A stretch of 64,000 nucleotides of DNA from an uncultured Actinomycetes bacterium (GCA_963799625.1 CAWCXU010000013.1:475709-539708); one strand, 5' to 3'; positions 21,148-44,226 are shown, counted from the first letter of the stretch. Program-made: numbers and translations. The notes: generated by a model from the sequence alone, not told the origin.

Positions 21148-21156
21148 CCGGCCGCC

Positions 21157-25088: not shown

Positions 25089-27425
25089 TCAGACGGTCTC
25101 GGTCTCGCTGGTCGGCGTGCCCGACACCAGCATCGGCACCGAGGACAGCACCACGCGGTCCTCGTAGAGGAACAGCCGCTTGATGAACAGCGCGTTCTGG
25201 TTGTGCAACGGCAGCTGCCACCAATGGTTCACGATCACCTCGGGCACGATCACGTTGACCACGCTGCCCGGGTCCGACGAGTAGCGCCGCACCTCCTCGA
25301 GCATCGGCCCGGTCAGGTCGCGGAACGGCGCCTCCACGATGTCCAGCGGCACCCCGAGCCCGGCGTCGAACCACGCGGTCTCGAGCTTGTGCGCCGCCTC
25401 GGGATCGAGGTCGAAGTAGATCGCCCGCGTGACGCTCGCGTCCAGGGACCGCGCGTAGTTCACCGCACGGATCGTGAGGTCGTTCACGCTGGACAGGAAC
25501 ACCAGCGCGACCGTGCGGTGCGGGATCAGGGGCTTCCCGTCGACCCCGCGCACACCCTCGTGCGTGACGACGACGGGCACGTCGGTCACCACCACGTGCG
25601 GGATCCGAAGGAGCGACGCCTTGAGCCGCAGGAGATCCGACCGACGCAGCACGTAGGCGGGCAGACCCGATCCGACGAGCTCGGGCACGATCAGGTTCAC
25701 GACGTCGTGCGGGCCGAGATCCATCGACGCGATGGATCGTCGGACGCTCGCCGTCAGGCTCCCGGACCCGGCCGCCACGAGCGGCGGGGCACCGGCGCCG
25801 TACAGGGCCGTCCACTGCTCGGCGAGCTCAGCCGGCACCGAGGCGCGCGGGGTGAGCGCCCGCAGCGAGCGCGGGTGGAACGACCGGACGTAGCCGAGCG
25901 CCTCGGCGACCGCGGCATCGACGTCGCGGACCAGCAACACCACGTGGGTCTGCCCCGTCACACCCACCCGCTCGGTCCCGCGATGCACCGCCGAGCGGAC
26001 CCACGTGTAGTGGCGGTGGATCGCGTAGAACAGCGGCACGAGCAGCGCCATGATCAAGATCGAGAGCCAGGCGCCGTCCTTGAACTTCGACAGGATGACG
26101 ACGATCAGCACCACGAAGGTGGTGATCGCGCCGATGATGTTGATGACGATCGAGCGGCGCCACCCCTTCGCCGCGCCCTCGCCTTTGCGGCCCTCGGCGA
26201 GCCAGTGCCGCACCATCCCGCTCTGCGACAGCGTGAACGACGTGAACACGCCGACGACGTAGAAGTGGATCAGCGTGTTCAGGTCGGCGTCGAAGATGTA
26301 GATCATCAGCGACGACAGCAGCCCGAGCGCGACGACGCCGTTGGAGAACACGAGCCGGTCGCCCCGGTTCACGAACTGGCTCGGCATGAACCGGTCGCGT
26401 CCGAGGATCGAGGCGAGCCGTGGGAAGTCCTGGTACGCGGTGTTCGCCGCGAGGATCAAGATCGCGGCCGTGAACGCCTGCACCACGTAGAACCCGAGCG
26501 AGTTGTTGCCGAAGATCGCGACCGAGATCTGGGCGACGGCGGATCGCTCCTCGCTCGCGACGACCCCGTGCACGTGGGTCGCCAGGTAGGAGATCCCGAG
26601 GAACATCGTGACGGCGATCGTCCCCATGATCGCGAGCGTCGTCGCCGCGTTCCGGGCCTGGGGCCGTTTGAACGCCGGCACGCCGTTCGAGATCGCCTCG
26701 ACCCCGGTGAGAGCGGTCGCACCCTGGGAGAACGCCTTGAGCAGCGCGAAGACCGTGATCCCCGCGACCGCCGCCGGCGCCGCGATCTGCTCGGACGCCG
26801 GCACGACCGCCGGGCACCCGCCGAGGCACCGCACGGCCCCCACCCCGATGAGGACCAGGATCGACACGACGAACCCGTAGGTGGGGACCGCGAACAACGT
26901 GCCGGACTCGCGCGCGCCGCGGAGGTTCGCGATCGTCACGAGGGCGACGAACATGATCGACAGGACGACCTTGTGCTGGTTCGCCCACGGGAACGCCGAC
27001 CCGATCGCGAACACGCCGGCCACGATCGAGACGATCACCGTCATCATGTAGTCGAACAGCAATGCGGCAGCCGCGACGAGCCCCGCGAACGTGCCGAGGT
27101 TCTCCTTGCTCACGATGTAGGCCCCGCCGCCGCTGGGGTAGGCGCGGACGGTCTGCCGATACGAGCTCACGACGATCGCCATCAGCGCCGCGATCGCGAA
27201 CGAGATCGGCATCACGTACTTCGTGGGCGACGTCGTCGCGATCGTCAGGGCGATCAAGATCTCCCCGGTCGCGTAGGCAACCGACGACAACGCGTCGGAG
27301 GCGAAGACCGGGAGCGCGAGGATCTTCGGCAACAGCGTGTGCTCGAGGTGTTGGCTCGAGAACGCGCGGCCCACGAGGAACCGCTTCGCGAGCGATCCGG
27401 TCGAGGACTTGGCTTGGGCGTTCAT
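25089..27425 (-). CDS. KimA-family K+ transporter homologue (APC superfamily, usually annotated 'amino acid permease') with an enlarged, apparently duplicated C-terminal cytoplasmic domain (778 aa)
   Basis: TM core shares KimA/YdaO signature blocks: SDALSSVAYATGEIL, SYRQTVRAYPSGGGAYIVSKENLG, DYMMTVIVSIVAG, LTGVEAISNGVPAFKRPQARNAATTLA, LAANTAY, GVFTSFTLSQSGM, and C-terminal ...LHNQNALFIKRLFLYEDRVV. The cytoplasmic domain region occurs twice. Last gene of the HK1-RR1 operon (40-bp gap). Confidence 0.75.
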   Translation of the reverse strand: MNAQAKSSTGSLAKRFLVGRAFSSQHLEHTLLPKILALPVFASDALSSVAYATGEILIALTIATTSPTKYVMPISFAIAALMAIVVSSYRQTVRAYPSGGGAYIVSKENLGTFAGLVAAAALLFDYMMTVIVSIVAGVFAIGSAFPWANQHKVVLSIMFVALVTIANLRGARESGTLFAVPTYGFVVSILVLIGVGAVRCLGGCPAVVPASEQIAAPAAVAGITVFALLKAFSQGATALTGVEAISNGVPAFKRPQARNAATTLAIMGTIAVTMFLGISYLATHVHGVVASEERSAVAQISVAIFGNNSLGFYVVQAFTAAILILAANTAYQDFPRLASILGRDRFMPSQFVNRGDRLVFSNGVVALGLLSSLMIYIFDADLNTLIHFYVVGVFTSFTLSQSGMVRHWLAEGRKGEGAAKGWRRSIVINIIGAITTFVVLIVVILSKFKDGAWLSILIMALLVPLFYAIHRHYTWVRSAVHRGTERVGVTGQTHVVLLVRDVDAAVAEALGYVRSFHPRSLRALTPRASVPAELAEQWTALYGAGAPPLVAAGSGSLTASVRRSIASMDLGPHDVVNLIVPELVGSGLPAYVLRRSDLLRLKASLLRIPHVVVTDVPVVVTHEGVRGVDGKPLIPHRTVALVFLSSVNDLTIRAVNYARSLDASVTRAIYFDLDPEAAHKLETAWFDAGLGVPLDIVEAPFRDLTGPMLEEVRRYSSDPGSVVNVIVPEVIVNHWWQLPLHNQNALFIKRLFLYEDRVVLSSVPMLVSGTPTSETETV

Positions 27426-27465
27426 CGGCCCACGATGCTACGGCCCCGCCGGGCCGGTCCGGTCG

Positions 27466-28149
27466 TCACGACGCGTCGGCAACCCATCGGTACCCAACGC
27501 CCGGCTCGGTGACGATCAACGCCGGGGCCGAGGCGTCGTCGCCGAGCTTGCGCCGGAGCGCGCGGACGTAGGTGCGCAGGTACGTGGTCTCGGTGCCGTA
27601 CCCCTGCCCCCAGACGCGTCGCAGCAGCCACTGGTGGGTGAGCAGCTTGCCCGGGTTCGTCACCAGGACTTCGAGCAGGCCGTACTCGGTCGGCGTCAGG
27701 TGGACCTGCTCCCCGTCGATCGTCACGAGCTGCTTGGCGAGGTCCACCTGAAGCGCCCCGAAGACGAGGAGTGGGGCGTCGGGCTCACCCGAACCCTTGC
27801 GCCGCAGGGCTGCGCGTGAACGGGCGAGGAGCTCTTCCATCCCGAACGGCTTGGTGACGTAGTCGTCGGCGCCGGCGTCGAGCGCGGCGACCTTGTCGCT
27901 CTGCCCCTCGCGGACCGACAGGACGATGATCGGGACCTCGGAGAAGGCGCGCACCCGGGTGATCACCTCGGTGCCGTCCATGTCGGGCAGGCCGAGGTCG
28001 AGCAGGATCAGCTCGGGGTGCTGGCTCGCGGCGGCGACCACGCCCTCGTCGCCGGTCCCCACGGTCTCGACGACGTAGCCGTGCGCCTCCAGGCTCGTGC
28101 GGAGCGCGCGGCGGATCTGCGGCTCGTCGTCGACCACCAGCACCTTCAC
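27466..28149 (-). CDS. OmpR/KdpE-family response regulator (RR1)
   Basis: VKVLVVDDEPQIRRAL...LILLDLGLPDMDG...DAGADDYVTKPF; winged-helix C-terminus (LTPTEYGLLEVL...GVGYRW). GTG start overlaps the HK1 stop (GTGA). Confidence 0.85.
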   Translation of the reverse strand: MKVLVVDDEPQIRRALRTSLEAHGYVVETVGTGDEGVVAAASQHPELILLDLGLPDMDGTEVITRVRAFSEVPIIVLSVREGQSDKVAALDAGADDYVTKPFGMEELLARSRAALRRKGSGEPDAPLLVFGALQVDLAKQLVTIDGEQVHLTPTEYGLLEVLVTNPGKLLTHQWLLRRVWGQGYGTETTYLRTYVRALRRKLGDDASAPALIVTEPGVGYRWVADAS

Positions 28150-29627
28150 GCAGCCTCCTCCTCGATCGGCAGGTCCAGGACCAGGGCGGTCCCGCCGCCG
28201 GCGGTCTCCTCCACCCAGATCCGGCCGCCGTGCGCGGTCACGACGGCCCGCGCGATCGACAGTCCGAGCCCGCTGCCGGGCCGTTCGGGCTCCTCGCGGC
28301 CACGATAGAAGGGTTCGAACACCTTCTCGCGTTGCGCGAGAGGGATGCCCGGGCCTTCGTCGGCGACCCGCACGCGCACGGACGCGCCCTCGCGCGACAG
28401 GTGGATCCGGACGGTCCCGTTCGGCGGCGAGTGGCGCGCGGCGTTCTCCACGAGGTTGGTGAGCACCTGATCGAGCTGCATCGGGTCGGCCGCGATCTCC
28501 GGGAGCTCGTCGGGCACCTGCAGCTCCACCCGCACGCGCTCGAGCTGGGGCCGCATCCGCGCCACCACCGCGCCGGCGACCTCCTCGACGTCGGTCGGCA
28601 CGCGACGCGGGATCAACGCGCCGGCGCGGATCCGGGCGAGATCCAGGATGTTGCCCACCAGCCGGTTCAGGCGATCGGTCTCCTCGAGGATCGTCGTGAG
28701 GAGCTCGCGCTGCTGCGTCGCGTCGTGCACGGTCGAGGCGTCGAGCAGGCTCGTGACGCCGGCCTTGATGGACGCGAGCGGCGTGCGCAGGTCGTGTGTG
28801 ACCGAGGAGAACATCGCCGCGCGCAGCTGGTTGGTCTCGGCGTCGAGCTGGGCGAGCCGCGCGCGCGCGTCGAGGCGGGCACGGTCCAGCGCCACCGCCG
28901 CCTGGCGCGTCGCCGCCTCCAGGAGCTCGCGCTCGCGCCGCGTGAACGAACGCGCGCGCGCGGGCCGCTCGGTCGTCAGCGTCCCCAAGGGGACCGTCGC
29001 GATCACGACCGGCACGATCTCGGTCGGGCCGCCCAGCTCGGCGCCCTCGCGCCGCGCGATCGCGCTCATCTCCTGCCCGTCGAGCACCACTTGGACGCTG
29101 CAGATCGCCAGCCCGAACGGATCCAGCAACAGCGCGACGAACTCGTCGAGCACCCGATCGGGGACGTCGCCGGACAAGAGCTTGCTCGACAGGAGCGCGA
29201 GCAACCGGGCCTCGCGCTCGCGCTCGGTGGCCCGGCGCCGCTCCGCCGCGGCGTTCCCGACCACCAGACCCACCACAGCGGCGATCGCGAGGAACACCAC
29301 CGAGGCGATCACGTCGCGGAGTTGCTCGAACTGGAACCCGTTCGCGGGCTGCTCGATCCACGGCAGGGCCACCGATGACAGCAGCGCCGTCACGATCCCC
29401 GCCCAGATGCCGCCGCTGACCGCCGCGATCGTGACGGCGAGCATGAAGATCGCGACCCCCGCCCCGGGCCCGAGATCCCTGGTCAGGGCCACCAAAACGG
29501 CGCCGCACAGGGCCGCGCCGACCCCGATCGCGAGGGCGCGCGCCGAGATCTGGTCCACCCGCGGTTCCCTGCGATCCATCGCCACGACGGACACGCTACC
29601 GCCTCTATCTGCGCGATCCGGGCGCAT
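28146..29627 (-). CDS. KdpD-type sensor kinase lacking the N-terminal KdpD/Usp domains (DUF4118-like 4-TM + GAF + HisKA + HATPase_c), HK1
   Basis: Four TM helices then ...SSVTHDLRTPLASIKAG (H-box), N-box NLVENAARHSP, and DEGPGIP, GSGLGLSIARAVVTAHGG. Confidence 0.85.
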   Translation of the reverse strand: MRPDRADRGGSVSVVAMDRREPRVDQISARALAIGVGAALCGAVLVALTRDLGPGAGVAIFMLAVTIAAVSGGIWAGIVTALLSSVALPWIEQPANGFQFEQLRDVIASVVFLAIAAVVGLVVGNAAAERRRATEREREARLLALLSSKLLSGDVPDRVLDEFVALLLDPFGLAICSVQVVLDGQEMSAIARREGAELGGPTEIVPVVIATVPLGTLTTERPARARSFTRRERELLEAATRQAAVALDRARLDARARLAQLDAETNQLRAAMFSSVTHDLRTPLASIKAGVTSLLDASTVHDATQQRELLTTILEETDRLNRLVGNILDLARIRAGALIPRRVPTDVEEVAGAVVARMRPQLERVRVELQVPDELPEIAADPMQLDQVLTNLVENAARHSPPNGTVRIHLSREGASVRVRVADEGPGIPLAQREKVFEPFYRGREEPERPGSGLGLSIARAVVTAHGGRIWVEETAGGGTALVLDLPIEEEAA

Positions 29628-29654
29628 CCGGGGCGGGCCGGAGGGGAGAGGTCG

Positions 29655-29703
29655 TTCACGTTTTCTTCACGCGCCCTCGGGCATCCTTCACGCCCCGCTC
29701 ACG
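29655..29703. promoter_or_regulatory. Phased hexamer direct repeats TTCACG (x3) + CTCACG at 29655, 29666, 29687, 29698 (spacings 11/21/11 bp). Candidate OmpR/KdpE-type response-regulator box in the HK1/trkA divergent intergenic region.
   Basis: Read directly: cgTTCACGttttcTTCACGcgccctcgggcatccTTCACGccccgCTCACGct. The helical-turn phasing is typical of winged-helix RR tandem sites. Lies 28-76 bp upstream of the HK1 ORF start. Confidence 0.35.
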
Positions 29704-29917: not shown

Positions 29918-30604
29918 GTGCACACGCGGGTACGCTTCCCGGCCATGCGGGTCCTGATCATGGGATGCGGTCGGGTCGGTTCCGAGCTCTCCCACGCGCT
30001 CGGCGACGCCGGTCACGAGGTCACGGTGATCGACAAACGCGCCGAGGCGTTCGATCGCTATCCCCCCGGCGAGCACGCGCGCACGATCGTCGGTCTCGGG
30101 TTCGACCGCGACGTGCTCGAGGAGGCCGGGATCCGCGAGGCCGATGCGTTCATCGCGGTCTCGAGCGGCGACAACTCCAACATCGTGTCGGCGCGCGTCG
30201 CGCTCGAGCACTACCACGTGCCCAAGGTGATCGCGCGGATCTTCGACCCGCGGCGCGCCGAGATCTACGAGCGGCTCAACATCCCGACGGTCGCGACGAC
30301 CACGTGGGGCGTGAAGCAGTTCCAGCTGATGCTGCTGCACACCGGCAAGGAGGTGCGCGAGAGCCTCGGCGGCGGCGAACTCCTGCGGGTGCGCGTCCCG
30401 GTGCCGAGCCACCTGGTCGGCAAGCCGGTGTCGACGTTGAACGTCGACGGGCACATCCTCGTCGCCGGCGTGTCGCGCGGCGGCAAGGGGTTCATCCCGT
30501 CGATCGACAGCACGCTGCAGGAGGGCGACTTCCTGATCGTCACGATGGGCAAGGACTACATGGACGAACTCGACACATTGCTCGAGCCGACGGAGCACCG
30601 CTGA
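29918..30604 (+). CDS. trkA: TrkA/CeoB-like K+ uptake regulatory protein (RCK/KTN NAD-binding N domain + TrkA_C)
   Basis: MRVLIMGCGRVGSELSHAL (GxGxxG Rossmann) ...C-terminal TrkA_C (LLRVRVPVPSHLVGKPVSTLNVDGHILVAGVSRGG). Stop overlaps the next trkA start (TGATG). Confidence 0.85.
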   Translation: MHTRVRFPAMRVLIMGCGRVGSELSHALGDAGHEVTVIDKRAEAFDRYPPGEHARTIVGLGFDRDVLEEAGIREADAFIAVSSGDNSNIVSARVALEHYHVPKVIARIFDPRRAEIYERLNIPTVATTTWGVKQFQLMLLHTGKEVRESLGGGELLRVRVPVPSHLVGKPVSTLNVDGHILVAGVSRGGKGFIPSIDSTLQEGDFLIVTMGKDYMDELDTLLEPTEHR

Positions 30605-31269
30605 TGCGGGTCGTGGTGACCGGGGGCGGCGCGATCGGACGCCACGTCGCAGGCGACCTCAGCACGCGCGGCCACGACGTCACGCTGATCGAGCAGGACA
30701 AGCAGACCGTCGAGGACCTCCGCGAGGAGATCCCCGAGGTGACGATCATGCTCGGCGACGCGTGCGAGCCGTGGGTGCTCGACGACGCGGAGCTCGCCCG
30801 CGCCGACGTGGTGGTCGCCGCTACCGGCGATGACGAGGACAACCTGGTCACGTCGCTGCTCGCCAAGCAGGAGTTCGCCGTGCCGAGGGTGCTCGCGCGC
30901 GTCAACCACCCGAAGAACGAGTGGCTCTTCACCGATCAGTGGGGTGTCGACACCGCCGTCTCGCCGCCCCACATGCTGACGTCGATGGTGGAGGAGGCCG
31001 TCACGACGGGCGACCTGGTGCAGCTCCTGCGGCTCGAGGGCGGCCAGATCTCGATCGTCGAGATGAAGCTCGCCGCCGACTCGCCGGCCGTCGGCAGGCC
31101 GATCTACGAGCTCCGCCTGCCCAACGACGCCGCGATCGTCGCGATCGTGCGCGACGCGCACGTCGTGATCCCGCAGCCCGAGACCGTGCTCGGCGGCGGC
31201 GACGAGCTGGTGGCGCTCGCCGCGATCGGGACCGAGCAGGCGCTTCGGGCCGCGATCGTCGGCGACTGA
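30604..31269 (+). CDS. trkA: Second TrkA/CeoC-like K+ uptake regulatory protein
   Basis: MRVVVTGGGAIGRHVAGDL...TrkA_C (ISIVEMKLAADSPAVGRPIYELRLPNDAAIVAIVRD). Confidence 0.85.
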   Translation: MRVVVTGGGAIGRHVAGDLSTRGHDVTLIEQDKQTVEDLREEIPEVTIMLGDACEPWVLDDAELARADVVVAATGDDEDNLVTSLLAKQEFAVPRVLARVNHPKNEWLFTDQWGVDTAVSPPHMLTSMVEEAVTTGDLVQLLRLEGGQISIVEMKLAADSPAVGRPIYELRLPNDAAIVAIVRDAHVVIPQPETVLGGGDELVALAAIGTEQALRAAIVGD

Positions 31270-31282
31270 GGCGGTCCGCCGC

Positions 31283-31975
31283 TCAGCCGCTCGGCTCGAC
31301 CTGCCAGCGATACCCGATCCGTGACTCGGTCACGATCGCGCGTGGGTGCCGCGGGTCGGGTTCGATCTTGCGCCGGAGCTGACTGACGAAGACCCGGAGC
31401 GCCTCGACGTCGGGGGCGCCGTCGGCGTCCCACACCTCGGCCAGCAGCCAGTCGTGCGTGCGGAGCACGCCCGGCGCGGTGGCGAGCGCCTCCAGCAGGC
31501 GCCACTCGGTCGGCGTCAGGTGGACCTGGTCCTCGCCGCGCCGCACGGATCGCGCGCCCAGGTCGATCCGGATGTCGTCGACCTCGAACCGGGTGCCGCT
31601 CGGCTCGGGCGCCGCCCGCCGCAGGAGCGCCCGTACCCGGGCCAGGAGCTCGGCAGCGCCGAACGGCTTCGTCAGGTAGTCGTCGGCGCCGAGGTCGAGC
31701 GCGGCGACCTTGTCCTGCTCGGCGTCGCGCACCGACAGCACGAGGATCGGCACCGAGCTGAACCGCCGGATCTCCCGGCAGGCGGTGAGCCCGTCGACGT
31801 GCGGCAGGTTGAGATCGAGCACGACCAGGTCGGGCTCGCGGTCGCGGACCGCGCCGACCGCGGCGCGCCCGTCGGTCGCCGTCGCGACGCGGAAGTCGCG
31901 GGCGAGCAGCGTCCGCTCCACCGCGCGGAGGATCTGGGGCTCGTCGTCGACGACGAGGATCAACGGGTCGCTCAT
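31283..31975 (-). CDS. OmpR/KdpE-family response regulator (RR2)
   Basis: MSDPLILVVDDEPQILRAV...LVVLDLNLPHVDG...winged helix LTPTEWRLLEAL...IGYRW. ATG overlaps the HK2 stop (ATGA). Confidence 0.85.
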   Translation of the reverse strand: MSDPLILVVDDEPQILRAVERTLLARDFRVATATDGRAAVGAVRDREPDLVVLDLNLPHVDGLTACREIRRFSSVPILVLSVRDAEQDKVAALDLGADDYLTKPFGAAELLARVRALLRRAAPEPSGTRFEVDDIRIDLGARSVRRGEDQVHLTPTEWRLLEALATAPGVLRTHDWLLAEVWDADGAPDVEALRVFVSQLRRKIEPDPRHPRAIVTESRIGYRWQVEPSG

Positions 31976-33360
31976 GCCGCCGGGAGCCGGAACCCCATCG
32001 TCGTTCCCCCGCCCGGGGTGTCGGTCGCCCAGATCTCGCCGCCCATCGCGGTGACGAAGCCCTTGCAGATCGCGAGACCGAGCCCGGCACTCAGGCGCGG
32101 CGACCCTTCCTGCAGCTTGTAGAACGGTGTGAAGAGCAGCTGCTGGTCGCCGAACGCGAGGCCGGGCCCGTGGTCGACCACCTGCACGACGACCACGCCG
32201 TCCGCCCGCTCCGCGGCGAGCTCGATCCGCCGGTCGGCGGCGCCCCGCACGGCGCGCGCCGCGTTCTCCACGAGGTTGGTGACGACCCGCTCCACGAACA
32301 GCTCGTCGCCCCGGACGCGGACGGCGTCGTCGGCGACCCGCACGTCGATCTCGACGCCCGGCCAGCGCTCGCGCACGCCGTCGACCGCCGGACCGACGAG
32401 ATCGTCCAGATCGACGAGGTCGGCGTGGGCCACGAGCGTGCCCGACTCGATCCGGGACATGTCGAGCAGGTTCGTGATCAGCTGCGCGAGCCGCCCGGCC
32501 GACGCGCGAACGTCCTCGAGCACGACCCGGGCGCTCTCGGGGTCGAACGTCTCGCGGTCGAGGATGTCGGTGACCGACGCGGTGATGGCGGCGATCGGGC
32601 TCTTCAGCTCGTGCGAGGCGGCCGCCAGCAACGATCGCCGCATGTCCTCGGTCCGCTTGTACAGCTCGGCCTCGCGGAGCTCCTGCTCCAGCCGCTCGGC
32701 CTGCACCACCAGCGCGACCTCGTCGGCGAACGTGCGGACGACACGGGTCTCGGCGGCCGTCAACGCCGGGCGATCCCCGACGAAGACCAACGAACCGACC
32801 CGCGCCGGGCCGACCCGCAGCGGGAACGCGGTCGCCGAGGAGGCGGCCGGATCGTCCTCGTCGCGGACCGAGGCCAGGACGAACCCGAGGCGTTCGGCCG
32901 CGCGACCGAGCGCCGGGGTAAGGCCCTCCGCCCGCTCGGACACCAGCACGTGGCTCAGATCGAACAGCAGCCGGACCTCCGCCTCGCGGTCCTCGGCCGC
33001 GGTCGCGCGCTCGTGCGCGACGCCCACCAGCCACGAGATCAACAGCGACATCGCGATGAACGCGAAGAACGCGACGACGTACTCGGTCCGCTCGAGGTCG
33101 AAGGTGCCGTAGGGGGGGAGGAACCCGACGTTGTACAGCGCCGACCCGACGATCGCGGCGACGATGCCGGGGACCACCCCACCGAGCCACGACGCCACCA
33201 CCACCGGCACGAGGAACGCGAACGCCGTCAGGGTGTGCGACAGCTGCACCCGGAAGGGCTCCATCACGGCGGCGATCGCGAGGGGGCCGAGCGTGGCGAC
33301 GAGGTAGGCGGCGCCGAGCAGCCACGAGGGCCTGCGGACGCCCAGCACACGCGTCGACAC
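31972..33360 (-). CDS. KdpD-type transmitter-only sensor kinase HK2 (4-TM + GAF + HisKA + HATPase_c)
   Basis: TM block ...NVGFLPPYGTFDLERTEYVVAFFAFIAMSLLIS (DUF4118-like FLPPY motif), H-box AAASHELKSPIAAITAS, HATPase motifs. GTG start at 33360 preferred. An alternative ATG at 33465 would overlap the divergent permease gene. Confidence 0.8.
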   Translation of the reverse strand: MSTRVLGVRRPSWLLGAAYLVATLGPLAIAAVMEPFRVQLSHTLTAFAFLVPVVVASWLGGVVPGIVAAIVGSALYNVGFLPPYGTFDLERTEYVVAFFAFIAMSLLISWLVGVAHERATAAEDREAEVRLLFDLSHVLVSERAEGLTPALGRAAERLGFVLASVRDEDDPAASSATAFPLRVGPARVGSLVFVGDRPALTAAETRVVRTFADEVALVVQAERLEQELREAELYKRTEDMRRSLLAAASHELKSPIAAITASVTDILDRETFDPESARVVLEDVRASAGRLAQLITNLLDMSRIESGTLVAHADLVDLDDLVGPAVDGVRERWPGVEIDVRVADDAVRVRGDELFVERVVTNLVENAARAVRGAADRRIELAAERADGVVVVQVVDHGPGLAFGDQQLLFTPFYKLQEGSPRLSAGLGLAICKGFVTAMGGEIWATDTPGGGTTMGFRLPAA

Positions 33361-33398
33361 GGCCGCGGTCCGATCCACGCTCGCAACGATAGTCGCCC

Positions 33399-33418
33399 TT
33401 ACGGAACCCTTATCCCGC
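33399..33418. promoter_or_regulatory. 20-mer TTACGGAACCCTTATCCCGC: two half-sites (TTACGG / TTATCC) 11 bp apart, in the HK2 / kimA-like-2 divergent intergenic region. 17/20 identical to a motif upstream of kdpF.
   Basis: Direct sequence comparison with 38151..38170 (TTACGGATCCCGTATGCCGC). Confidence 0.35.
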
Positions 33419-33437
33419 GCTTCTAGCGTGGACCGTG

Positions 33438-36591: not shown

Positions 36592-38087
36592 GAGGCCTCC
36601 TGCAACGAGAAGGCGAAGGTCGCGCCCCCGCCAGGGGTGTCCTCGAGCCAGATCTCCCCGCCCATCAGATCGACGAACCCCCGCGCGATCGCGAGCCCGA
36701 GGCCGGAGCCGAGTTTCGTCGTCCGCTCGTCGAGCCGGGCGAAGGGCAGGAACAGCTGGGTGCGCTCCCGCGTGGTGAGTCCCGCCCCGTGGTCGACGAC
36801 CTTGACCGCCACCTGGGCGCGCCGTTGCCCGTGGTCGGTCGGACCGATCTCGATCTCCACCGACGGGCTGCCGGCGGCCACGGCCGACCGCGCCGCGTTG
36901 TCCAGGAGGTTCGACACCACCCGGGGGAAGAAGACCGGGTCGGCGACCGCGACCTCGTGCCCGTCGTCGATCGCCATGGCGATGTGCACGTCGGGCCAGC
37001 GCAGCGCCGCCGCGTCGACCTCGGCCGTGACGGTCTCCGCGAGATCGACGTGCTCGAGGTGCGCCTGCACGACGCCGGCCTCGATCCGCGACAGGTCCAG
37101 GAGGTTCGCGACGAGCGCGTCGAGCCGGTCGGCCTCGCTGTCGACCACGTGCAGGACGGCCGCACGCTCCGCCGTCGAGCGCTCCACCTCGGGATCGAGC
37201 AGATCGGTGACCGACGCCTTGATCGCCGCCAGGGGGCTCCGGAGGTCGTGCGAGACCGCGGCGAGCATCGTTCGGCGCGCCGTCTCGGTCTGCCGGAGGA
37301 TCTCGGCGTCGGTCGCGGTGCGCAGCAGCCGGTCGCGCTCGAGCACCAGCGCGAGCTGGTCACAGACCGCACGCAGCACCCGCACCTCCGCGGGGTCCAG
37401 CGCGGGCCGCGACCCGGTGAGCACGATCAGGCCCAGCGTTCGGTTGCCGACCGACAACGGCAGCCGTTGCGGCGCGCGTCCCGGGTCGGCCGGGTTCCAC
37501 GACGGGCTGATCGACCCGGCCGGAGCGCCGACGACCACCCGCTCGTCGAGCCCACCCTCGGCGCCGCTCACGAACAGGGCGCCCGCGTCGAATCCGAACC
37601 GCGTGACGACGTCGCCGAGCAGCGCGCCGTACATCTCCTCTCCCGGACCCCGCACCACGAGGTCGCGGCTCAGCTCCTGCAGCGTCTGCAGCTCGCGCTC
37701 CTTCGCCTCGGCGACCTCCGCCCGCTCCACCGCACGGGAGTAGAGCGAGGAGATCAGCACCGACAACGCGAGGAACACGACGAGCGCGACCACGTGCTCG
37801 CCCCGTGCGATCACGAACGAGTCGTACGGCGGCAGGAAGAAGAAGTTGAACGTCAGGAACGACACGACCGCCGCGAGCAACCCCGGTCCCAGCCGCCCGA
37901 CGATCGCCGCGGCGACCACGACGACCAGGAAGGTGAAACCGATCGTGAGCGGCTGCAAGGTGTCGCGGAACGGGAGGAACACGAGCACGACAGCCGCCGG
38001 ACCGGCGACCGCGATGAGGTACCCGATCGCGCGAAGACGTCCTCTCGGCGCCGCGCGGAGCAGCGCGAGGGTGCGTGCGGTGCGCAT
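36588..38087 (-). CDS. kdpD: KdpD-type transmitter-only sensor kinase HK3, divergent from kdpFABC
   Basis: FLTFNFFFLPPYDSFVIARGEHVVALVVFLALSV (DUF4118 signature), GAF-like middle, H-box AAVSHDLRSPLAAIKAS, HATPase (LLDNAARSAV, DHGAGL, GSGLGLAIARGFVDLMGG). Confidence 0.85.
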   Translation of the reverse strand: MRTARTLALLRAAPRGRLRAIGYLIAVAGPAAVVLVFLPFRDTLQPLTIGFTFLVVVVAAAIVGRLGPGLLAAVVSFLTFNFFFLPPYDSFVIARGEHVVALVVFLALSVLISSLYSRAVERAEVAEAKERELQTLQELSRDLVVRGPGEEMYGALLGDVVTRFGFDAGALFVSGAEGGLDERVVVGAPAGSISPSWNPADPGRAPQRLPLSVGNRTLGLIVLTGSRPALDPAEVRVLRAVCDQLALVLERDRLLRTATDAEILRQTETARRTMLAAVSHDLRSPLAAIKASVTDLLDPEVERSTAERAAVLHVVDSEADRLDALVANLLDLSRIEAGVVQAHLEHVDLAETVTAEVDAAALRWPDVHIAMAIDDGHEVAVADPVFFPRVVSNLLDNAARSAVAAGSPSVEIEIGPTDHGQRRAQVAVKVVDHGAGLTTRERTQLFLPFARLDERTTKLGSGLGLAIARGFVDLMGGEIWLEDTPGGGATFAFSLQEAS

Positions 38088-38150
38088 GGTCGAAGGATAG
38101 CCAGCGCGGCAACGACGCTCGACCGTCCGGACCGCCCGCGGACGAGACCT

Positions 38151-38170
38151 TTACGGATCCCGTATGCCGC
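38151..38170. promoter_or_regulatory. 20-mer TTACGGATCCCGTATGCCGC in the kdpD3 / kdpF divergent intergenic region. Conserved with 33399..33418. A further TCACGG hexamer lies about 25 bp downstream.
   Basis: Read directly; 17/20 identity to the HK2-permease2 intergenic motif. Confidence 0.35.
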
Positions 38171-38234
38171 ACGCGTCGTTCCTCACGGTTGCCTGATGTC
38201 CGCTGACTACGGTCGGGGCCAGGAGGTGAGGACC

Positions 38235-38318
38235 GTGTGGGATCTCTGGGTCGGCGTCATCACCGCGGTGTTCTTCGTGGTGGCCTTCGCCCTCGTCCGC
38301 TGGTTCGACGCGATATGA
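38235..38318 (+). CDS. Small hydrophobic leader peptide (27 aa, single TM) preceding kdpF/kdpA
   Basis: AGGAGG then GTG..., VWDLWVGVITAVFFVVAFALVRWFDAI*. Stop overlaps the next small ORF (ATGA). Confidence 0.4.
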   Translation: MWDLWVGVITAVFFVVAFALVRWFDAI

Positions 38319-38403
38319 ACATCGCCGATGCGCTCGAGCTCGCGCTCGCGCTCGCGCTGCTCGTCTATCTCGTGTACGTGTTGATCCGCCCGGAGCGATT
38401 CTG
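38314..38403 (+). CDS. kdpF: KdpF-like K+-transporting ATPase small subunit (29 aa)
   Basis: MNIADALELALALALLVYLVYVLIRPERF*. The LVYLVYVLI core resembles KdpF (…LGYLVYALI…). Its TGA overlaps the kdpA ATG. Confidence 0.55.
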
Positions 38404-40073
38404 ATGGGCACGATCGTCGTCTACACGCTCCTGTTGATCGTGCTGACGCCGCCGCTGGGCGCCTACCTGTACCGCGTCTACACGAGCGAGCGCACCGGCC
38501 GGATCGAGGGCGTCTTCTATCGGGTGCTCGGCGTGAACCCCGACGCCGAGCAATCGTGGCGCCGGTACGCGACGGCGGTCCTGTGGTTCAGCGTGATCAG
38601 CATGGTGTTCGTCTACCTCGTGCTGCGGTGGCAACAGCATCTACCGCTGAACCCCGAAGGCTTCGCGGGCGTGAACCCGTACCTGTCGTTCAACACCGCC
38701 GCGAGCTTCATGACCAACACGAACTGGCAGTCCTACGGCGGCGAGACGACGATGAGCTACCTCTCCCAGATGCTCGCGCTGACGTTCCAGAACTTCGTGT
38801 CGGCCGCGGTGGGCATCGCGGTCGTGATCGCGATGATCCGCGGGTTCACGCGCGCCGGCACCGACAACGTCGGGAACTTCTGGCGCGACCTCGTGCGCGG
38901 CGTCGTCTACGTCCTGTTGCCGATGTCCGTGCTGGTCGCGATCGTCCTCATGAGCCAGGGTGTCGTGCAGACCCTCAGCCCCTCCGCGTCGGTCACCGGG
39001 ATCCAGGGGTTCGCGCAGGTGATCGCGCGCGGTCCGGTCGCGAGCCAGATCGCGATCAAGCAGCTCGGCACGAACGGCGGCGGGTTCTTCAACGTGAACT
39101 CGGCGCACCCGTTCGAGAACGCGACGCCGATCTCGAACTTCGTCGAGGCGTTCGCGATCCTGTGGATCGCCGCGGCGCTGACCTACACGTTCGGCAAGAT
39201 GGTCGGCAACGTCCGCCAGGGCTGGGTGCTGTTCGGCGTGATGTGGATCCTGCTGGTCGCCGGTCTGGCGCTCACCGTCCCCGGCGAGCGGACCGCCACC
39301 CCCGCGATGCAAGCGGCGGGCGTCGCCGGCAGACCGCGCCCAACCTCGAGGGCAAGGAGGTGCGCTTCGGACCCGACGCGTCGTCGCTGTGGTCGGTCGC
39401 CACCACCGACGCCTCGAACGGGAGCGTCAACTCGATGCTCGACTCGTACCAGCCGCTCGGCGGGCTCGCGCCGATGTTCAACATCGCGATCGGCGAGGTG
39501 ATCTTCGGCGGGGTCGGCAGCGGGCTGTACGGGATGATCTTCTACGTCGTGATCGCCGTGTTCATCGGCGGGCTGATGGTCGGCCGCACCCCCGAGTACC
39601 TCGGCAAGAAGATCGGCGCGCGCCAGGTCAAGATCGTCGTGATCGCCGTGCTCGTGCCGTTCCTGGTGGCGCTCGCGTTCACGGCGTTGGCGGTGGTGAC
39701 ACCGTCGGGCCTGGCCGGGCCGCTCAACACCGGCCCTCACGGGTTCAGCGAGATCTTCTACGCGTACCTGTCGCAGGGGAACAACAACGGTTCGGCGTTC
39801 GCGGGGCTCACCGCGAGCTCGCCGTACTACACGATCACCGGCGGCATCGCGATGCTCGTCGCCCGCTTCGTGCCGCTGATCGCGGCGCTCGCGCTCGGCG
39901 CGAGCGTGGGCAGGGAGCGCACCGTGCCGTTCACGGCGGGGACGCTGCGGACCGACACGGGACTGTTCGCCGGCCTGCTGACCGGCGTGATCGTGATCAT
40001 CGGCGCCTTGACGTTCCTGCCCGGGCTCGCCCTCGGTCCGATCGTCGAGCACCTGCAGAAGGGGCTGAGCTGA
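38404..40073 (+). pseudogene. kdpA: KdpA (K+-transporting ATPase subunit A) with a -1 frameshift near 39330. Possible pseudogene or assembly indel.
   Basis: N-terminal 300 aa (MGTIVVYTLLLIVLTPPLGAYLYRVY...) are in ORF 38404..39501. The remainder (NLEGKEVRFGPDASSLWSVATTDASNGSVNSMLDSYQPLGG...EVIFGGVGSGLYGM...) is in the frame of ORF 38556..40073. The junction …AGVAG|QTAPNLEGKE aligns with KdpA if one c is restored in gccggc(c)agacc. Confidence 0.8.
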
Positions 40074-40074
40074 G

Positions 40075-42142
40075 ATGTCGGTGACCGCCCCGCCGCAGAC
40101 AGCGCCCACCACGCAGACGACGATCCGCTCGCGTCCCTTGTTCGACGGACCGATCGTGCGTCAGGCGATCGTCGACAGCTTCACGAAGCTGAACCCGCGC
40201 ACGCTCCTGCGCAACCCGGTGATCTTCGTCGTCGAGGTCGTGTCCATGGTGGTCACGATCCGGATCGTCGCCGACGCCGTCAACGGCGGTGCGGTCGCGT
40301 TCGACACCGCGATCGGACTCGGGCTGTGGTTCACGGTGCTGTTCGCGAACTTCGCCGAGGCGATGGCGGAAGGGCGCGGCAAGGCGCAGGCCGAGACCCT
40401 GCGGCGCACCCGCGCCGACCTCGTGGCCCGGCGGCTCACCGCCGACGGCACCGAGGAGACCGTGCAGGCGTCCGACCTGCGCGCCGGCGACGTCGTGATG
40501 GTGTCGGCCGGCGAGCTGATCCCGGGCGACGGCGAGATCGTCGAAGGGATCGCGTCGGTCGACGAGTCGGCGATCACCGGCGAGTCGGCCCCCGTGATCC
40601 GGGAGTCCGGCGGCGACCGCTCGGCCGTGACCGGCGGCACCAAGGTGCTCTCGGACTGGATCAAGGTCCGGATCACGGCCGAGCCCGGCGAGGGCTTCAT
40701 CGACCGGATGATCCGGCTCGTCGAAGGCGCCGAGCGCCAGAAGACGCCGAACGAGATCGCGCTGTCGCTCCTGCTCGTGAAGTTCACGATCATCTTCCTG
40801 ATGGTGATCGTGGCCCTCCAGCCGTTCGCCATCTACGCGGGCAACCGCGTGAGCGACGCCGTGCTGATCGCCCTGTTCGTGTGCCTGATCCCGACCACGA
40901 TCGGGGGCCTGCTGTCCGCGATCGGGATCGCCGGGATGGACCGGCTCGTCCAGCGCAACGTGCTCGCGATGAGCGGCCGCGCGGTCGAGGCCGCCGGCGA
41001 CGTGTCCGCGCTGCTGCTCGACAAGACCGGCACGATCACCCTCGGGAACCGGCAGGCGGTGGCGTTCCTCCCGGCGCCCGGCGTCGACGAGCGGCGAGCT
41101 CGCCGAGGTCGCGCAGATGGCCTCGCTCGCCGACGAGACCCCCGAGGGTCGCTCGATCGTCGTGCTCGCGAAGGAGCGCTTCAACCTGCGCGAGCACGAC
41201 TTCATGGAGGCCCACGCCGAGTTCGTCCCGTTCACCGCGCAGACGCGGATGAGCGGCGTGAACCTCAACGGCAGCGAGATCCGCAAGGGCGCCGTCGACG
41301 CGATCCGCGGCTGGTCCGGGCGGGACCTGCCGCCCGAGCTCGACGAGGCGGTCGAGCGCATCTCGCGCGCGGGCGGCACACCGCTCGCGGTCGCGAAGGA
41401 CCACGTCCCGATGGGGGTCGTCGAGCTCAAGGACATCATCAAGGACGGACTGGTCGAGCGGTTCGACCAGCTGCGGCGGATGGGGATCCGCACGGTGATG
41501 ATCACCGGCGACAACCCGCTGACCGCGGCCGCGATCGCGCAGGAGTCCGGTGTCGACGATTTCCTCGCCGAGGCGACGCCCGAGACCAAGATGGCGCTGA
41601 TCCGCAAGGAGCAGGAGGGCGGCGTGCTCGTCGCGATGACCGGCGACGGCACGAACGACGCCCCCGCGCTCGCGCAGGCGGACGTCGGGGTCGCGATGAA
41701 CACCGGCACGTCGGCGGCGAAGGAGGCCGGCAACATGGTCGACCTCGACTCGAACCCCACGAAGCTGATGGACATCGTCGAGATCGGCAAGCAGCTGCTG
41801 ATCACCCGTGGCGCGCTCACAACCTTCTCGATCGCGAACGACGTCGCGAAGTACTTCGCGATCATCCCGGCGATGTTCGTGACGACGTATCCGGCCCTCG
41901 ATCGGTTGAACGTGATGCACCTGACCTCGCCGCAGTCCGCGATCTTGTCGGCGGTGATCTTCAACGCGCTGATCATCGTGGCGCTCGTGCCGCTCGCGCT
42001 CCGCGGCGTGCGCTACCGGCCGGTCGGCGCCGAGGGTCTGCTGCGCCGCAACCTGCTGATCTACGGTCTCGGCGGGATCATCGTGCCCTTCATCGGCATC
42101 AAGCTGATCGACATGTTCCTCGGGCTGGTGCATTTCCCGTGA
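40075..42142 (+). pseudogene. kdpB: KdpB (P-type ATPase catalytic subunit) with a frameshift near 41092. Possible pseudogene or assembly indel.
   Basis: N-terminus through [24 protein letters not shown] is in the frame of ORF 40075... The C-terminus ([29 protein letters not shown]...[22 protein letters not shown]...[25 protein letters not shown]...) is in ORF 41117..42142. The 4-nt stretch cggc between the frames indicates a +1/-2 indel. Confidence 0.8.
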
Positions 42143-42726
42143 TCCGCACGATCGTCCGCGCGCTGCTCGCCACGCTCGTGCTCGCGGCCCTGACGGGGAT
42201 CGCGTACCCGCTGGTGATGACCGGGATCGGCCAGGTTGCGTTCGCCCACGACGTGAACGGCTCGCTCGTCGACGTCAACGGTCAACCGGTCGGCAGCTCG
42301 CTCATCGGACAGACCTGGAACGGCCCGGAGTGGTTCTACGGGCGACCGTCGGCGGTCGGCGACGACGCGTCGACGTCGTCGGGCTCGAACCTCGGGCCTC
42401 GGTCCCAACAGCTCGCCGACGACATCGAGACGCAGGCGCGCCAGATCCTCAAGATCGAGTCGCCCTACACACCCGGCCTCACGACGGCCAGCATCCCGGT
42501 CGACCTGGTGACCTCCTCGGGCAGCGGCCTCGACCCCGATATCTCGGTCGCCGCCGCCCGGTTCCAAGCGCCGCGGATCGCGGCCGTTCGCGGGCTCCCG
42601 CTCGACCAGGTGCTGAGCCTGATCGACGCGCACACCGCCCACGAGACCCTCGGGTTCCTCGGAGAGCCGCGGGTGAACGTCCTGGAGCTCAACCTCGCGC
42701 TGCAGGGGGTGGCGCCACGAGCGTGA
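42139..42726 (+). CDS. kdpC: KdpC (K+-transporting ATPase subunit C)
   Basis: [35 protein letters not shown]...[25 protein letters not shown] (KdpC signature). GTG overlaps the kdpB stop (GTGA). Confidence 0.8.
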
Positions 42727-43038
42727 CCACCGCCCTGCAGCGCACCGTCCTCGTGATGGGACGCCACGTCACGGAGCCACCACGGCTCTACCCGGGCGAC
42801 GTCGCCGGGTCGATGGCCGTCGTCGTGATCACGGTCGGGTGGCCGGTCACGTCGGCCCAGTCGATGGCGGTCGAACAAGCGCTCGAACTCGCGCGCGAGC
42901 GTCGCGTCGCGTTCGACGCGTTCCTGGTCGGCTCGATCACCGAGGGACTCGAGGTGGTCGACACCCGTGACCGGGTGCTGTTCGCCGGCGACCGACGCGA
43001 GGGGAAACGGATCGTGCGCGGCCTCGGCCCGCGCGGGA

Positions 43039-44226
43039 TCACCGCGCGCGCTGCGCGATGACGTGGATGTCGACGTTCGCGGCCTGCCTGATCAGCTCGG
43101 TGACGAACGATCCCCGCAGGATCTCCTTCCACCGCGAGCGGCGTGATTCCCCGACCACGAGCTGCGTGACGTACTGGGTGTAGGCGACGTTCAGCACGCC
43201 CGCGACCGGGTCCTCGTCGTCGATCACGAGGAGCTCTCCGCCGAGGTCGGCCACCAGTTGCTTGAGCTCGACGAGCCACGCGGTCGCCTCGGGCTCGTGC
43301 CGCTCGCGCGCGTGGACCACGAGGAAGTCGCCTCGGGCCCGCTGGGCGATCCGCGCGCCGCGCCGCACGAGGTCGTCGGCGGAGTCCGGCTCGCCGACGC
43401 AGACCAGGACGCGTTCGCGGGTCTCGGGCGTGCGCCCCTTCGACCATCGCGACAGGAGCGTCTCGTCGACCTGGTTCGCGACCCGCATCAGCGCCAGTTC
43501 GCGGAGCGCCGTCAGGTTGTCGGTCGTGAAGTAGCGCTGCAGCGCGAGCTCCGCTTTCGCGGGATCGGGGTAGACGTTGCCGTGCAGCATCCGACGTCGC
43601 AGGGCGTGCGGCGACATGTCGACGAGCTCGATCTGGTCGGCCAGCTCGACCACCCAATCGGGAACCGTCTCGCGCTGCTGCACCCCGGTCACGTCGGCGA
43701 CGACGTCGTTCAGGCTCTCGAGATGCTGGATGTTGACCGTGGTGATGACCTCGATCCGTGCCGCCAGCAGGTCGATCACGTCCTCCCAGCGCTTGCCGCG
43801 CCGGGCGCCCGGGACGTTCGTATGCGCGAGCTCGTCGACGAGCGCGATCTCGGGCTGGCGCTGTACCACCGCGTCGGTGTCCATCTCGTCGAAGATGGCG
43901 CCGCGGTACTCGATCGTGCGCTCGGCGACGGTCTCGAGGCCTTGGAGCATCTCGAGCGTGCGTGGCCGGCCGTAGGTCTCGACGCACGCGACGACGACCC
44001 GGCTTCCGCGCTCGGCGCGACGACGCCCCTCCGACAGCATCGCGTAGGTCTTGCCGACACCGGGCGCGGCGCCGAGGTAGATCCGAAGCGGCGCCGACTT
44101 GGCCGCGCGCGCCTCGCTCCGGTTCCACTGCGGCGGCGCCGACGGCTCCGCGACGACCGTATGCCCGATCAGGGCCTCGACCGACTCCACTCCCCGCTCT
44201 GGCCCGCGCTCGGCGCTCGTCGCCAT
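43039..44226 (-). CDS. Stand-alone KdpD N-terminal sensor domain protein (KdpD_N P-loop domain + Usp domain), no TM or transmitter domains
   Basis: RIYLGAAPGVGKTYAMLSEGRRRAERG (KdpD Walker A) ...VITTVNIQHLESLNDVV..., then Usp-like ERVLVCVGEPDSADDLVRRGARIAQ...LLVIDDEDPVAGVLNVAYTQYVTQLVVG. Convergent with kdpC. The overlapping ORF 42788..44128(-) is an R/G-rich artefact. Confidence 0.85.
   Translation of the reverse strand: MATSAERGPERGVESVEALIGHTVVAEPSAPPQWNRSEARAAKSAPLRIYLGAAPGVGKTYAMLSEGRRRAERGSRVVVACVETYGRPRTLEMLQGLETVAERTIEYRGAIFDEMDTDAVVQRQPEIALVDELAHTNVPGARRGKRWEDVIDLLAARIEVITTVNIQHLESLNDVVADVTGVQQRETVPDWVVELADQIELVDMSPHALRRRMLHGNVYPDPAKAELALQRYFTTDNLTALRELALMRVANQVDETLLSRWSKGRTPETRERVLVCVGEPDSADDLVRRGARIAQRARGDFLVVHARERHEPEATAWLVELKQLVADLGGELLVIDDEDPVAGVLNVAYTQYVTQLVVGESRRSRWKEILRGSFVTELIRQAANVDIHVIAQRAR

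Follow-up and report, generated by a model that had tools for sequence, protein, structure and literature searches.

The 64,000-nucleotide stretch of DNA analysed here, called the window, comes from an uncultured soil bacterium of the Actinomycetes (GCA_963799625.1 CAWCXU010000013.1:475709-539708). Between positions 25089 and 44226 it carries a contiguous set of genes predicted to mediate potassium uptake and its control: two KimA-type K+/H+ symporters, two TrkA proteins, the KdpFABC pump, three kinase/regulator pairs of the KdpD/KdpE type and a separate KdpD N-terminal protein. A preliminary description had listed these gene classes, and all of them are present, the limits of the region being exact ends of open reading frames (ORFs; the stop side of KimA1 at 25089 and the start of the KdpD_N protein at 44226). 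HK1-RR1-KimA1 is transcribed divergently from TrkA1-TrkA2, HK2-RR2 from KimA2, and HK3-kdpE from a 27-aa ORF and kdpFABC. The region probably represents an island for K+ uptake and ion homeostasis that is conserved throughout the Actinomycetota and has been enlarged in this species, with the KimA, TrkA and kdp genes wired to the adjacent regulators as proposed below. Since the window has a G+C content of about 70%, raw ORF lists are crowded with spurious frames; genes were delimited by GC3 and frame plots and refined with gene calls on near-identical public contigs. Eight contigs (40 kb-2.5 Mb; the labels L001-L008 are among them) from other ENA assemblies or samples carry the same locus and are referred to as siblings. 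Their identity to the window is 98.0-99.6%, and ~20 kb of alignment contains 11-41 gaps.

KimA1 (25089-27425, minus strand) encodes 778 aa and is the final gene of its unit, the gap to the RR1 stop being 40 nt. KimA2 (33438-35891, plus strand) encodes 817 aa, in agreement with a gene call of that length, and is 40% identical to KimA1. When the two proteins were compared with the PDB using phmmer, the sole match in both cases was KimA from Bacillus subtilis (6S3K/8B70/8B71), with E=2.9e-124 for KimA1 and E=7.3e-105 for KimA2. Eight residues make up the K+ sites, the gates and the proton coupling of KimA (D36, Y43, D117, T121, S125, T230, E233, and Y377), E233 being the proton-coupling residue (PMC6994465). 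HMMER alignments show that all eight are kept in KimA1 and in KimA2 (in the latter as D69, Y76, D152, T156, S160, T267, E270, and Y420) and that they are invariant across the family alignment. The only NCBIfam amino-acid-transporter match of KimA1 reaches 26.6 bits against a cutoff of 284, while KimA2 matches none of these models. Both permeases are thus assigned to the KimA family, as the preliminary description had it, and not to the bona fide amino-acid permeases, and they are predicted to take up K+. They are longer than the 607-aa KimA because a second copy of the cytoplasmic C-terminal (PPAT-like) domain follows the first (E ~3e-7 for the internal repeat). The solved KimA lacks this tandem arrangement of the regulatory domain, which is new. 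The long form is typical of Actinomycetota homologues, and the cyanobacterial and Chloroflexota homologues are about 600 aa. The residues of KimA that contact cyclic di-AMP (c-di-AMP) are R337, H579, N580, Q581, and S582 (PMC10284832), and they are kept in part: in KimA1 a serine replaces R337 and the second domain copy reads LHNQN, and KimA2 has the arginine and LHDRT in place of HNQS.

The three kinases are encoded on the minus strand and all contain DUF4118, HisKA, and HATPase_c domains (Pfam). HK1 (28146-29594; 482-aa gene call) is a membrane histidine kinase of the KdpD C-terminal-half type, HK2 (31972-33360; 462 aa, start from the L002 gene call) is a paralogue of HK3, and HK3 (36588-38087; DUF4118 E=8e-25) has a TM(DUF4118)/GAF/HisKA/HATPase architecture, TM denoting transmembrane, and forms the histidine-kinase half of a split KdpD. 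Each is preceded on the map by its regulator on the same strand: RR1 (27466-28149; start from the L001 gene calls), an OmpR-family protein with Response_reg and Trans_reg_C domains, RR2 (31283-31975), a KdpE-like response regulator according to Pfam and NCBIfam, and kdpE, or RR3 (35892-36591). KdpD is the top NCBIfam match of all three kinases, at 164-197 bits over model positions ~593-884 (596-884 for HK1), and KdpE that of the three regulators, at 242 (RR1), 197 (RR2), and 206 bits (RR3), with MtrA scoring nearly equally for RR2; all six lie far under the equivalog cutoffs, which are 1123 bits for KdpD (NF007793) and 325 bits for KdpE. For the kinases such scores are to be expected because they are half-proteins, and they are therefore filed as KdpD-C-like rather than as KdpD equivalogs. 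The claim of three such systems and a separate KdpD N-terminal protein is in this sense borne out. HK2 and HK3 are 42% identical and RR2 and RR3 68%, HK1 and RR1 being more distant, so HK2/RR2 are by sequence paralogues of HK3/RR3. Only HK3/RR3 are divergent from kdpFABC, while the other two systems are linked to KimA and TrkA genes instead.

The remaining part of KdpD is a separate polypeptide of 395 aa (43039-44226, minus strand), a free-standing atypical serine-kinase half with KdpD_N (PF02702, E=1.6e-86) and Usp (E=1.5e-7) domains and intact Walker A (GAAPGVGKT) and Walker B (LVDELAH) motifs. An exact-sequence look-up of this ORF gave no match, probably because the called start differs. 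KdpB is inhibited by the N-domain of KdpD, which acts as an atypical serine kinase (Silberberg et al., 2024; PMC11018627). The same study catalogued the split class 'KdpD/Usp ASK + TM/GAF/DHpCA HK' and reported that a KdpD/Usp-only protein is stimulated by c-di-AMP (PMC11018627); the separate N-terminal protein pointed out in the preliminary description is therefore present but not new.

TrkA1 (29945-30604, plus strand; 219-aa gene call) and TrkA2 (30604-31269, plus strand) are CeoB-like and CeoC-like RCK proteins, respectively, each with a TrkA_N (E=2e-24 and 8e-29) and a TrkA_C domain (E=3e-11 and 1e-13) in Pfam and a TrkA match in NCBIfam. All four subunits of KdpFABC are encoded on the plus strand with their catalytic motifs. 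They are kdpF (38315-38404; 29 aa, PF09604 E=1e-9), kdpA (38404-40073; PF03814, Pfam KdpA positions 2-306 and 307-548 lying in two frames), kdpB (40075-42142; E1-E2 ATPase and hydrolase domains, DKTGT and TGES motifs), and kdpC (42139-42726; 195 aa, PF02669 E=4e-65, with a gene call in L004). The TrkA pair and the pump were thus correctly identified earlier. The operon opens with the 27-aa ORF (38235-38318, plus strand), which encodes the single-TM peptide VWDLWVGVITAVFFVVAFALVRWFDAI, overlaps the start codon of kdpF with its end, and is called as a 40-aa gene in sibling contigs. It belongs to no Pfam family, and homologous ORFs ending in W(F/L)DRI are found upstream of kdpF in three related loci (L010, L018, and L021). 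It may encode an extra small subunit or a leader peptide of actinobacterial kdp operons.

Five genes shift frame mid-gene in the window, namely kdpE (near 36481), kdpA (39327-39328, +2), kdpB (41095, +C), nhaA (48222, +1), and one CaCA gene (51296, a base missing), so that kdpA, kdpB, and kdpE are interrupted as ORFs in the sequence as given. In the eight siblings the indels are scattered and differ between assemblies, and every gene that is frameshifted in the window is intact in at least one of them: kdpA (555-556 aa) in L005, L006, and L008, kdpB (688 aa) in L004, kdpE (232 aa) in L001, L004, and L006, nhaA (454 aa) in L004, L006, and L008, and the CaCA gene (343 aa) in L004. The siblings have other genes disrupted instead, for example topA in L001. 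Each assembly has 13-277 private indel columns per 20 kb, spread over all genes. As indels break different genes in different siblings, the window is taken to be a noisy long-read metagenome assembly, in which any call of a pseudogene requires confirmation at the level of reads. One of the two extra bases in kdpA occurs in the window alone, the kdpE shift arises where two in-frame alleles are joined as a chimera, and the GC3 coding signal and the catalytic motifs are unperturbed on either side of each shift. The shifts in kdpE, kdpA, nhaA, and the CaCA gene are most simply explained as artefacts of long-read assembly or polishing. The extra C in kdpB is found in four of seven assemblies (the window, L006, L007, and L008; not in L003, L004, and L005), without any compensating indel, and its carriers include the three assemblies closest to the window. 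In a strain-phylogeny test its distribution agreed loosely, and not cleanly, with the distance in single-nucleotide polymorphisms (SNPs), and it may stem from a systematic error in basecalling, or the allele may be real and inactivating in the dominant strain. Misassembly of the whole layout was considered and rejected, as every junction is found again in two or more independent assemblies and, in part, in the sister species. An open frame of 2017 aa on the plus strand (19114-25167), which runs across several real minus-strand genes, is a high-GC artefact that GC3 does not support.

One genome per species was scanned with an alignment of KimA1 and KimA2, which gave 80 loci that were annotated by tblastn with the window proteins. 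Counts of adjacency were restricted to loci with at least 3 kb on both sides, 20 of them from Actinomycetota and 28 belonging to other phyla. KimA has a DUF4118-type kinase/regulator pair as its neighbour in 13 of the former and two of the latter, and a TrkA pair in 11 and none, respectively. A core of KimA, TrkA1, TrkA2, an OB-fold protein, and H+-PPase recurs in about 15 loci from Actinomycetota metagenome-assembled genomes (MAGs), and wherever the pair occurs in related loci TrkA2 follows TrkA1. The genes are thus syntenic and co-occurring in relatives, as had been claimed, and since the order recurs in independent assemblies, in the sister species and in many related MAGs, the clustering is beyond chance and the gene order is not a product of misassembly. 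The arrangement of KimA1-RR1-HK1 divergent from KimA2-TrkA1-TrkA2 is seen in L010, L016, L018, and L033, and a kdp module stands beside the island, at varying positions, in L010, L018, L021, and L033. Elsewhere KimA lies next to KdpD_N-HK-RR without kdpABC (L030, L078, and L080) or next to kdpABC-KdpD_N-HK-RR (L046 and L086). In the window clade and in Streptomyces-like loci the OB-fold protein is a near-constant neighbour of TrkA2, and in the window clade H+-PPase adjoins it; in the Streptomyces-like loci a DUF3159 gene separates the OB-fold gene from TrkA2.

The closest relatives indicate how the layout may have arisen. The sister species (90% KimA1 identity) has the order H+-PPase, OB-fold, KimA2, then divergently HK2-RR2, then TrkA2-TrkA1, and divergently HK1-RR1-KimA1; KimA2 directly abuts the OB-fold gene, and the kdp module is missing at that position. 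A relative with 82% identity has a single system followed by two tandem KimA genes. The island core is thus old, and the second system would, judged from these layouts, have arisen in their shared lineage before this species and its sister diverged, the layouts with one system serving two KimA genes being apparently closer to the ancestral state. As for the 8.3-kb kdp module (35892-44226), either this species acquired it by insertion or its sister lost it from this position. It had been suggested that each KimA gene has its own system; this holds for this species and its sister, but not for the closer-to-ancestral layouts.

Cultured organisms were represented by three records from a plasmid collection that are large and evidently chromosomes. 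Nonomuraea gerenzanensis has TrkA2-TrkA1 divergent from KimA, and Streptomyces sp. BHT-5-2 has full-length KdpD, KdpE, the OB-fold gene, DUF3159, and TrkA2-TrkA1, divergent from a protein with two TrkA_N domains and a KimA-like gene. The former of these last two (L093, 5699-7744) is a 681-aa protein that lies between TrkA1 and the KimA-like gene, a further RCK component that the window does not have. Three Streptomyces-like contigs likewise have KdpD-KdpE in the island, and none of them has kdpABC within 8 kb. Where KimA-like genes are carried on plasmids of Rhodococcus and Streptomyces, neither a two-component system nor TrkA lies next to them. The concentration of cation-homeostasis genes had been regarded as unusual. 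Since the island is a phylum-level trait this was overstated: the core with one kinase/regulator pair is conserved across Actinomycetota, and Streptomyces loci of the cultured type also have KdpD-KdpE in the same island. What does stand is the triplication, as the layout with three systems was met in this species alone among the sampled relatives.

The divergent promoters each contain direct repeats with the 11-bp phasing of OmpR/KdpE-style sites. Between HK1 and TrkA1 a candidate RR1 operator (29655-29703, plus strand) consists of four TTCACG-like half-sites, arranged as two 11-bp-phased pairs, TTCACGTTTTCTTCACG and TTCACGCCCCGCTCACG, the starts of which are 32 bp apart. The exact pattern TTCACG-N5-yTCACG occurs at two sites within 50 bp in this spacer and nowhere else in the 64 kb. 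The layout with four half-sites, though with diverged spacers, is found upstream of HK1 orthologues in six other species (L025, L036, L033, L011, L010, and L018), and in four of these six it is located 50-100 bp upstream of KimA2-TrkA1-TrkA2. The half-sites resemble the KdpE site of Escherichia coli, TTTATA-N5-TTTACA. Another candidate box, for RR2/RR3, is CTTACGGAACCCTTATCCCGC (33398-33418, plus strand), located 20 bp upstream of the KimA2 start, and it is identical at 17 of 21 positions to TTTACGGATCCCGTATGCCGC (38150-38170, plus strand), a candidate KdpE box ~65-85 bp upstream of the first ORF of the kdp operon. The pattern has no further match in the 64 kb at up to three mismatches, and the kdp promoters of L010 and L018 contain related boxes. 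The recognition-helix regions of RR2 and RR3 are identical and that of RR1 differs, which matches the pattern of box similarity. These conserved operator-like repeats lend support to the earlier suggestion of co-regulation, and we infer that the adjacent regulators would control transcription of the KimA, TrkA, and kdp genes through them.

No riboswitch, be it of the c-di-AMP (ydaO), fluoride or any other type, was detected by Rfam, using the gathering threshold for the whole window and E<=1 for positions 24500-49500; the matches obtained were a tRNA-Thr far upstream and one sub-threshold chance match. As no c-di-AMP or other riboswitch is present, transcriptional control would not be of the Bacillus kimA type. 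A scan of the cluster for sigma-70 promoters and intrinsic terminators gave fewer matches than shuffled sequences and was uninformative. The spacer between KimA and TrkA1 in three Streptomyces-like contigs (L141, L143, and L145) contains a conserved ORF for a hydrophobic peptide of about 30 aa (M..TAELIGA.AAL.GLG.LTLASVRSI.RR), and a common element GTGTAGCkT lies immediately upstream of TrkA1.

These features suggest a model in which each kinase would sense K+ availability or turgor/ionic strength via its TM/GAF region, like E. coli KdpD, and phosphorylate its own regulator. RR1 would bind the four TTCACG half-sites and thereby control its own operon, with KimA1, as well as TrkA1-TrkA2; in relatives the corresponding site would control KimA2-TrkA1-TrkA2. 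RR2 and RR3 would bind the near-identical TTACGG-N5-kTAT boxes and switch on KimA2, driven by the proton motive force, and KdpFABC, driven by ATP, and cross-talk between them is possible. At the protein level, KdpD_N/Usp may act as a post-translational serine kinase that shuts off KdpB at the serine of the TGES motif, probably on a c-di-AMP cue, and the TrkA pair would add nucleotide-dependent control. The neighbouring H+-PPase and NhaA could supply or balance the proton and sodium gradients used by KimA.

Some of the observations weigh against this model. The pattern used to search for the KimA2 and kdp boxes was built from the two sites it matches, and of these two only the kdp box has cross-species support, which is weaker than that for the TTCACG sites. 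The spacers between KimA and TrkA1 in Streptomyces-like loci lack comparable repeats and share merely the -10-like GTGTAGCkT. GAF was matched weakly and in HK3 alone (Pfam), and the kinases and regulators score, as given above, far below KdpD and KdpE equivalogs. H+-PPase and NhaA are drawn into the circuit by adjacency alone. Furthermore, kdpA, kdpB, and kdpE are out of frame in the window itself, and the pump could, on account of the extra C in kdpB, truly be inactive in the dominant strain.

If the Kdp part were indeed decaying, with kdpA, kdpB, and kdpE as pseudogenes and K+ taken up by KimA alone, it would explain why all three genes are frameshifted, why the kdpB insertion is shared by assemblies from different samples, including those closest to the window, and why a kdp module is missing from this position in the sister species. 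We consider this unlikely, since private indels affect all genes in every assembly, no kdp gene is broken in all siblings, the kdpA and kdpE shifts contain a window-unique base and a chimera of in-frame alleles, respectively, coding signal and catalytic motifs are undisturbed around each shift, and the kdpB insertion does not cleanly follow SNP distance. A more far-reaching objection is that the permeases could be ordinary amino-acid or polyamine transporters of the APC superfamily, in which case there would be no K+ island beyond kdp and trkA. Pfam places both in AA_permease_2 only, and source annotations call them 'amino acid transporter' or 'APC family permease'. The full-length similarity to KimA as the sole PDB match, the invariance of the eight K+/H+ residues, the failure to approach the amino-acid-transporter models, and the persistent linkage of these genes to TrkA, Kdp, and KdpD-type genes make this very improbable, and the annotations would then amount to a systematic mis-annotation of a large actinobacterial family. 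The grouping might also be incidental, the kinase/regulator pairs beside KimA controlling other targets or kdp only. KimA homologues in other phyla are mostly solitary, the gene order of the island is fluid, and TrkA pairs often have no KimA next to them, as described below. However, the same components remain together through several rearrangements, HK1-RR1-KimA1 are tightly packed, conserved direct repeats are located in the promoters shared with KimA and TrkA genes, and the similarity of the recognition helices tracks that of the boxes, so that clustering without regulatory meaning seems quite unlikely. An expanded K+-uptake island under the control of its own two-component systems thus remains the reading we prefer.

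No TrkH/KtrB-type gene was found in the window or beside any of the TrkA pairs examined. In a metagenome scan seeded with TrkA1 the TrkA1-TrkA2 pair was intact wherever the contig reached far enough, and among 42 loci with enough upstream sequence KimA lay beside TrkA1 in 13 and not in the other 29. The TrkA loci without KimA have an RNA methyltransferase (trmA-like) gene on one side of TrkA1-TrkA2 and DUF3710-dUTPase (dut) on the other, which agrees with the neighbourhood in Mycobacterium tuberculosis. In L009, L010, L018, and L033, KimA-TrkA1-TrkA2 are co-directional with gaps of 40-60 bp. The link between TrkA and KimA is thus ancient, yet, as judged from these loci, frequently broken. In M. 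tuberculosis an APC-type membrane protein, Rv2690c, is encoded beside ceoB. In the papers on this organism 'Trk' means the two TrkA proteins CeoB and CeoC, and Rv2690c is described merely as a 'probable integral membrane protein'; the main CeoBC paper mentions neither TrkA, TrkG nor Rv2690c and names no membrane partner. No paper was found that mentions KimA together with CeoB or CeoBC. According to a 2023 review, Streptomyces venezuelae lacks TrkH, KtrB, and KtrD and has two KimA-like proteins, none of its K+ transporters having been studied.

It is conceivable, then, that the KdpD/KdpE-type machinery and the orphan TrkA (CeoB/CeoC) pair of Actinomycetota primarily serve KimA symporters, the membrane component of 'Trk' being a KimA-family permease. 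The ancient and often operon-like adjacency, the presence of KdpDE in the island without kdpABC in Streptomyces-like loci, and the reported absence of TrkH and KtrB from S. venezuelae are compatible with this. We nevertheless hold it to be a minority possibility, because the adjacency is lost in most of the independently sampled TrkA loci. On this view 'Trk' of M. tuberculosis and of Streptomyces would have a KimA-type membrane component in place of TrkH/KtrB, and the KdpDE-like systems of Actinomycetota would control transcription of kimA and trkA and not of kdp alone. We lean, without much conviction, towards a TrkA pair that is mechanistically unrelated to KimA and gates a TrkH/KtrB-type or channel subunit encoded elsewhere, the adjacency reflecting shared regulation or ancestry. 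RCK proteins classically partner TrkH/KtrB, KimA has a regulatory cytoplasmic domain of its own, and in the Streptomyces locus the double-TrkA_N protein separates TrkA1 from KimA, all of which, like the 29 loci without adjacent KimA, fits such a view. It does not account for the lack of TrkH/KtrB genes beside the pairs or, reportedly, in S. venezuelae, nor for the four loci in which KimA and the TrkA genes are closely spaced in one direction.

Downstream of the KdpD_N gene the order is OB-fold, H+-PPase, CrcB, NhaA, a 215-aa ORF, LytR, two CaCA exchangers, and a helicase of the Hrq1/MrfA type. The preliminary description had placed H+-PPase, CrcB, NhaA, and the exchangers directly after the island; all of them are there, but the OB-fold gene precedes H+-PPase and LytR lies between NhaA and the CaCA genes. 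The OB-fold protein (44256-44615, minus strand; 119 aa) has a sub-threshold tRNA_anti-codon match, H+-PPase (44619-46946, minus strand) matches PF03030 with E=9e-251, and the fluoride channel CrcB (47024-47407, plus strand; PF02537, 127-aa gene call) is preceded by a stretch (46947-47023) in which no fluoride riboswitch was detected even at E<=1. A DUF190 gene comes after CrcB in one relative (L089). The frameshifted Na+/H+ antiporter gene nhaA (47382-48747) and the CaCA (Na_Ca_ex) exchanger that lacks a base (50596-51626) are on the minus strand, and the second exchanger (51671-52996; 441 aa) is on the plus strand. Upstream of the island, between topA and the gene for the DNA polymerase III delta' subunit, an odd 679-aa fusion of a major facilitator superfamily (MFS) transporter and thymidylate kinase is encoded (19108-21147, minus strand), as indicated by Pfam matches of the identical gene in L001.

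The locus consists of known parts in a wiring so far undescribed. As no new kind of protein is among these parts, its value lies in this wiring and in the hypotheses it raises rather than in a new mechanism. New are the apparent dedication of KdpD-C/KdpE-like systems to KimA symporters and TrkA genes, with candidate operators, and the multiplication of kinase/regulator systems to three in this species; no paper was found that describes KimA paired with KdpDE-like systems, in line with the earlier statement that the arrangement is not a described one. Little is understood of how Actinomycetota take up K+: the KimA-like genes of Streptomyces are unstudied, and the 'Trk' of M. tuberculosis is described only as two soluble TrkA proteins. 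The locus offers several leads in this respect. Systems of the KdpD-C/KdpE type that may be dedicated to KimA-type symporters can be approached through defined candidate operators, the near-identical boxes raise the possibility that RR2 and RR3 cross-regulate two importers, one driven by protons and the other by ATP, and the conserved genetic link between the TrkA pair and KimA could help to identify the missing membrane partner.

With respect to known systems, the permeases share with B. subtilis KimA (YdaO; KUP-family; PDB 6S3K, 8B70, 8B71) the 12-TM domain of APC/LeuT fold and the PPAT-like cytoplasmic domain. The latter binds c-di-AMP and mediates dimerisation in KimA, where it is present in a single copy, as opposed to two tandem copies here. 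The B. subtilis gene also has a ydaO-type c-di-AMP riboswitch, which was not found in this locus, where dedicated two-component systems adjoin the permease genes instead. CeoB/CeoC of M. tuberculosis are likewise encoded by an adjacent pair of genes for TrkA_N plus TrkA_C proteins with no TrkH-type gene alongside, but in the window KimA genes and KdpDE-like systems surround the pair. The Streptomyces-type locus has the same island components, with KdpDE within the TrkA/KimA island. It differs in having full-length KdpD, one two-component system, and a KimA of ~680 aa, and neither kdp pump nor H+-PPase in the locus.

The kdp part itself corresponds closely to the published split KdpD class (PMC11018627). 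KdpD_N and Usp form a separate protein with Walker A and B motifs, the TM/GAF/HisKA/HATPase kinase and kdpE are divergent from kdpFABC, KdpB has the serine of the TGES motif, and the candidate promoter box is KdpE-like, with direct repeats in 11-bp phasing. In contrast to that class, the locus has two additional kinase/regulator paralogues whose partners are not kdp genes but KimA and TrkA genes, either in the same operon or transcribed divergently. A single KdpD_N protein here accompanies three kinases, and the 27-aa ORF is an extra element in front of kdpF.

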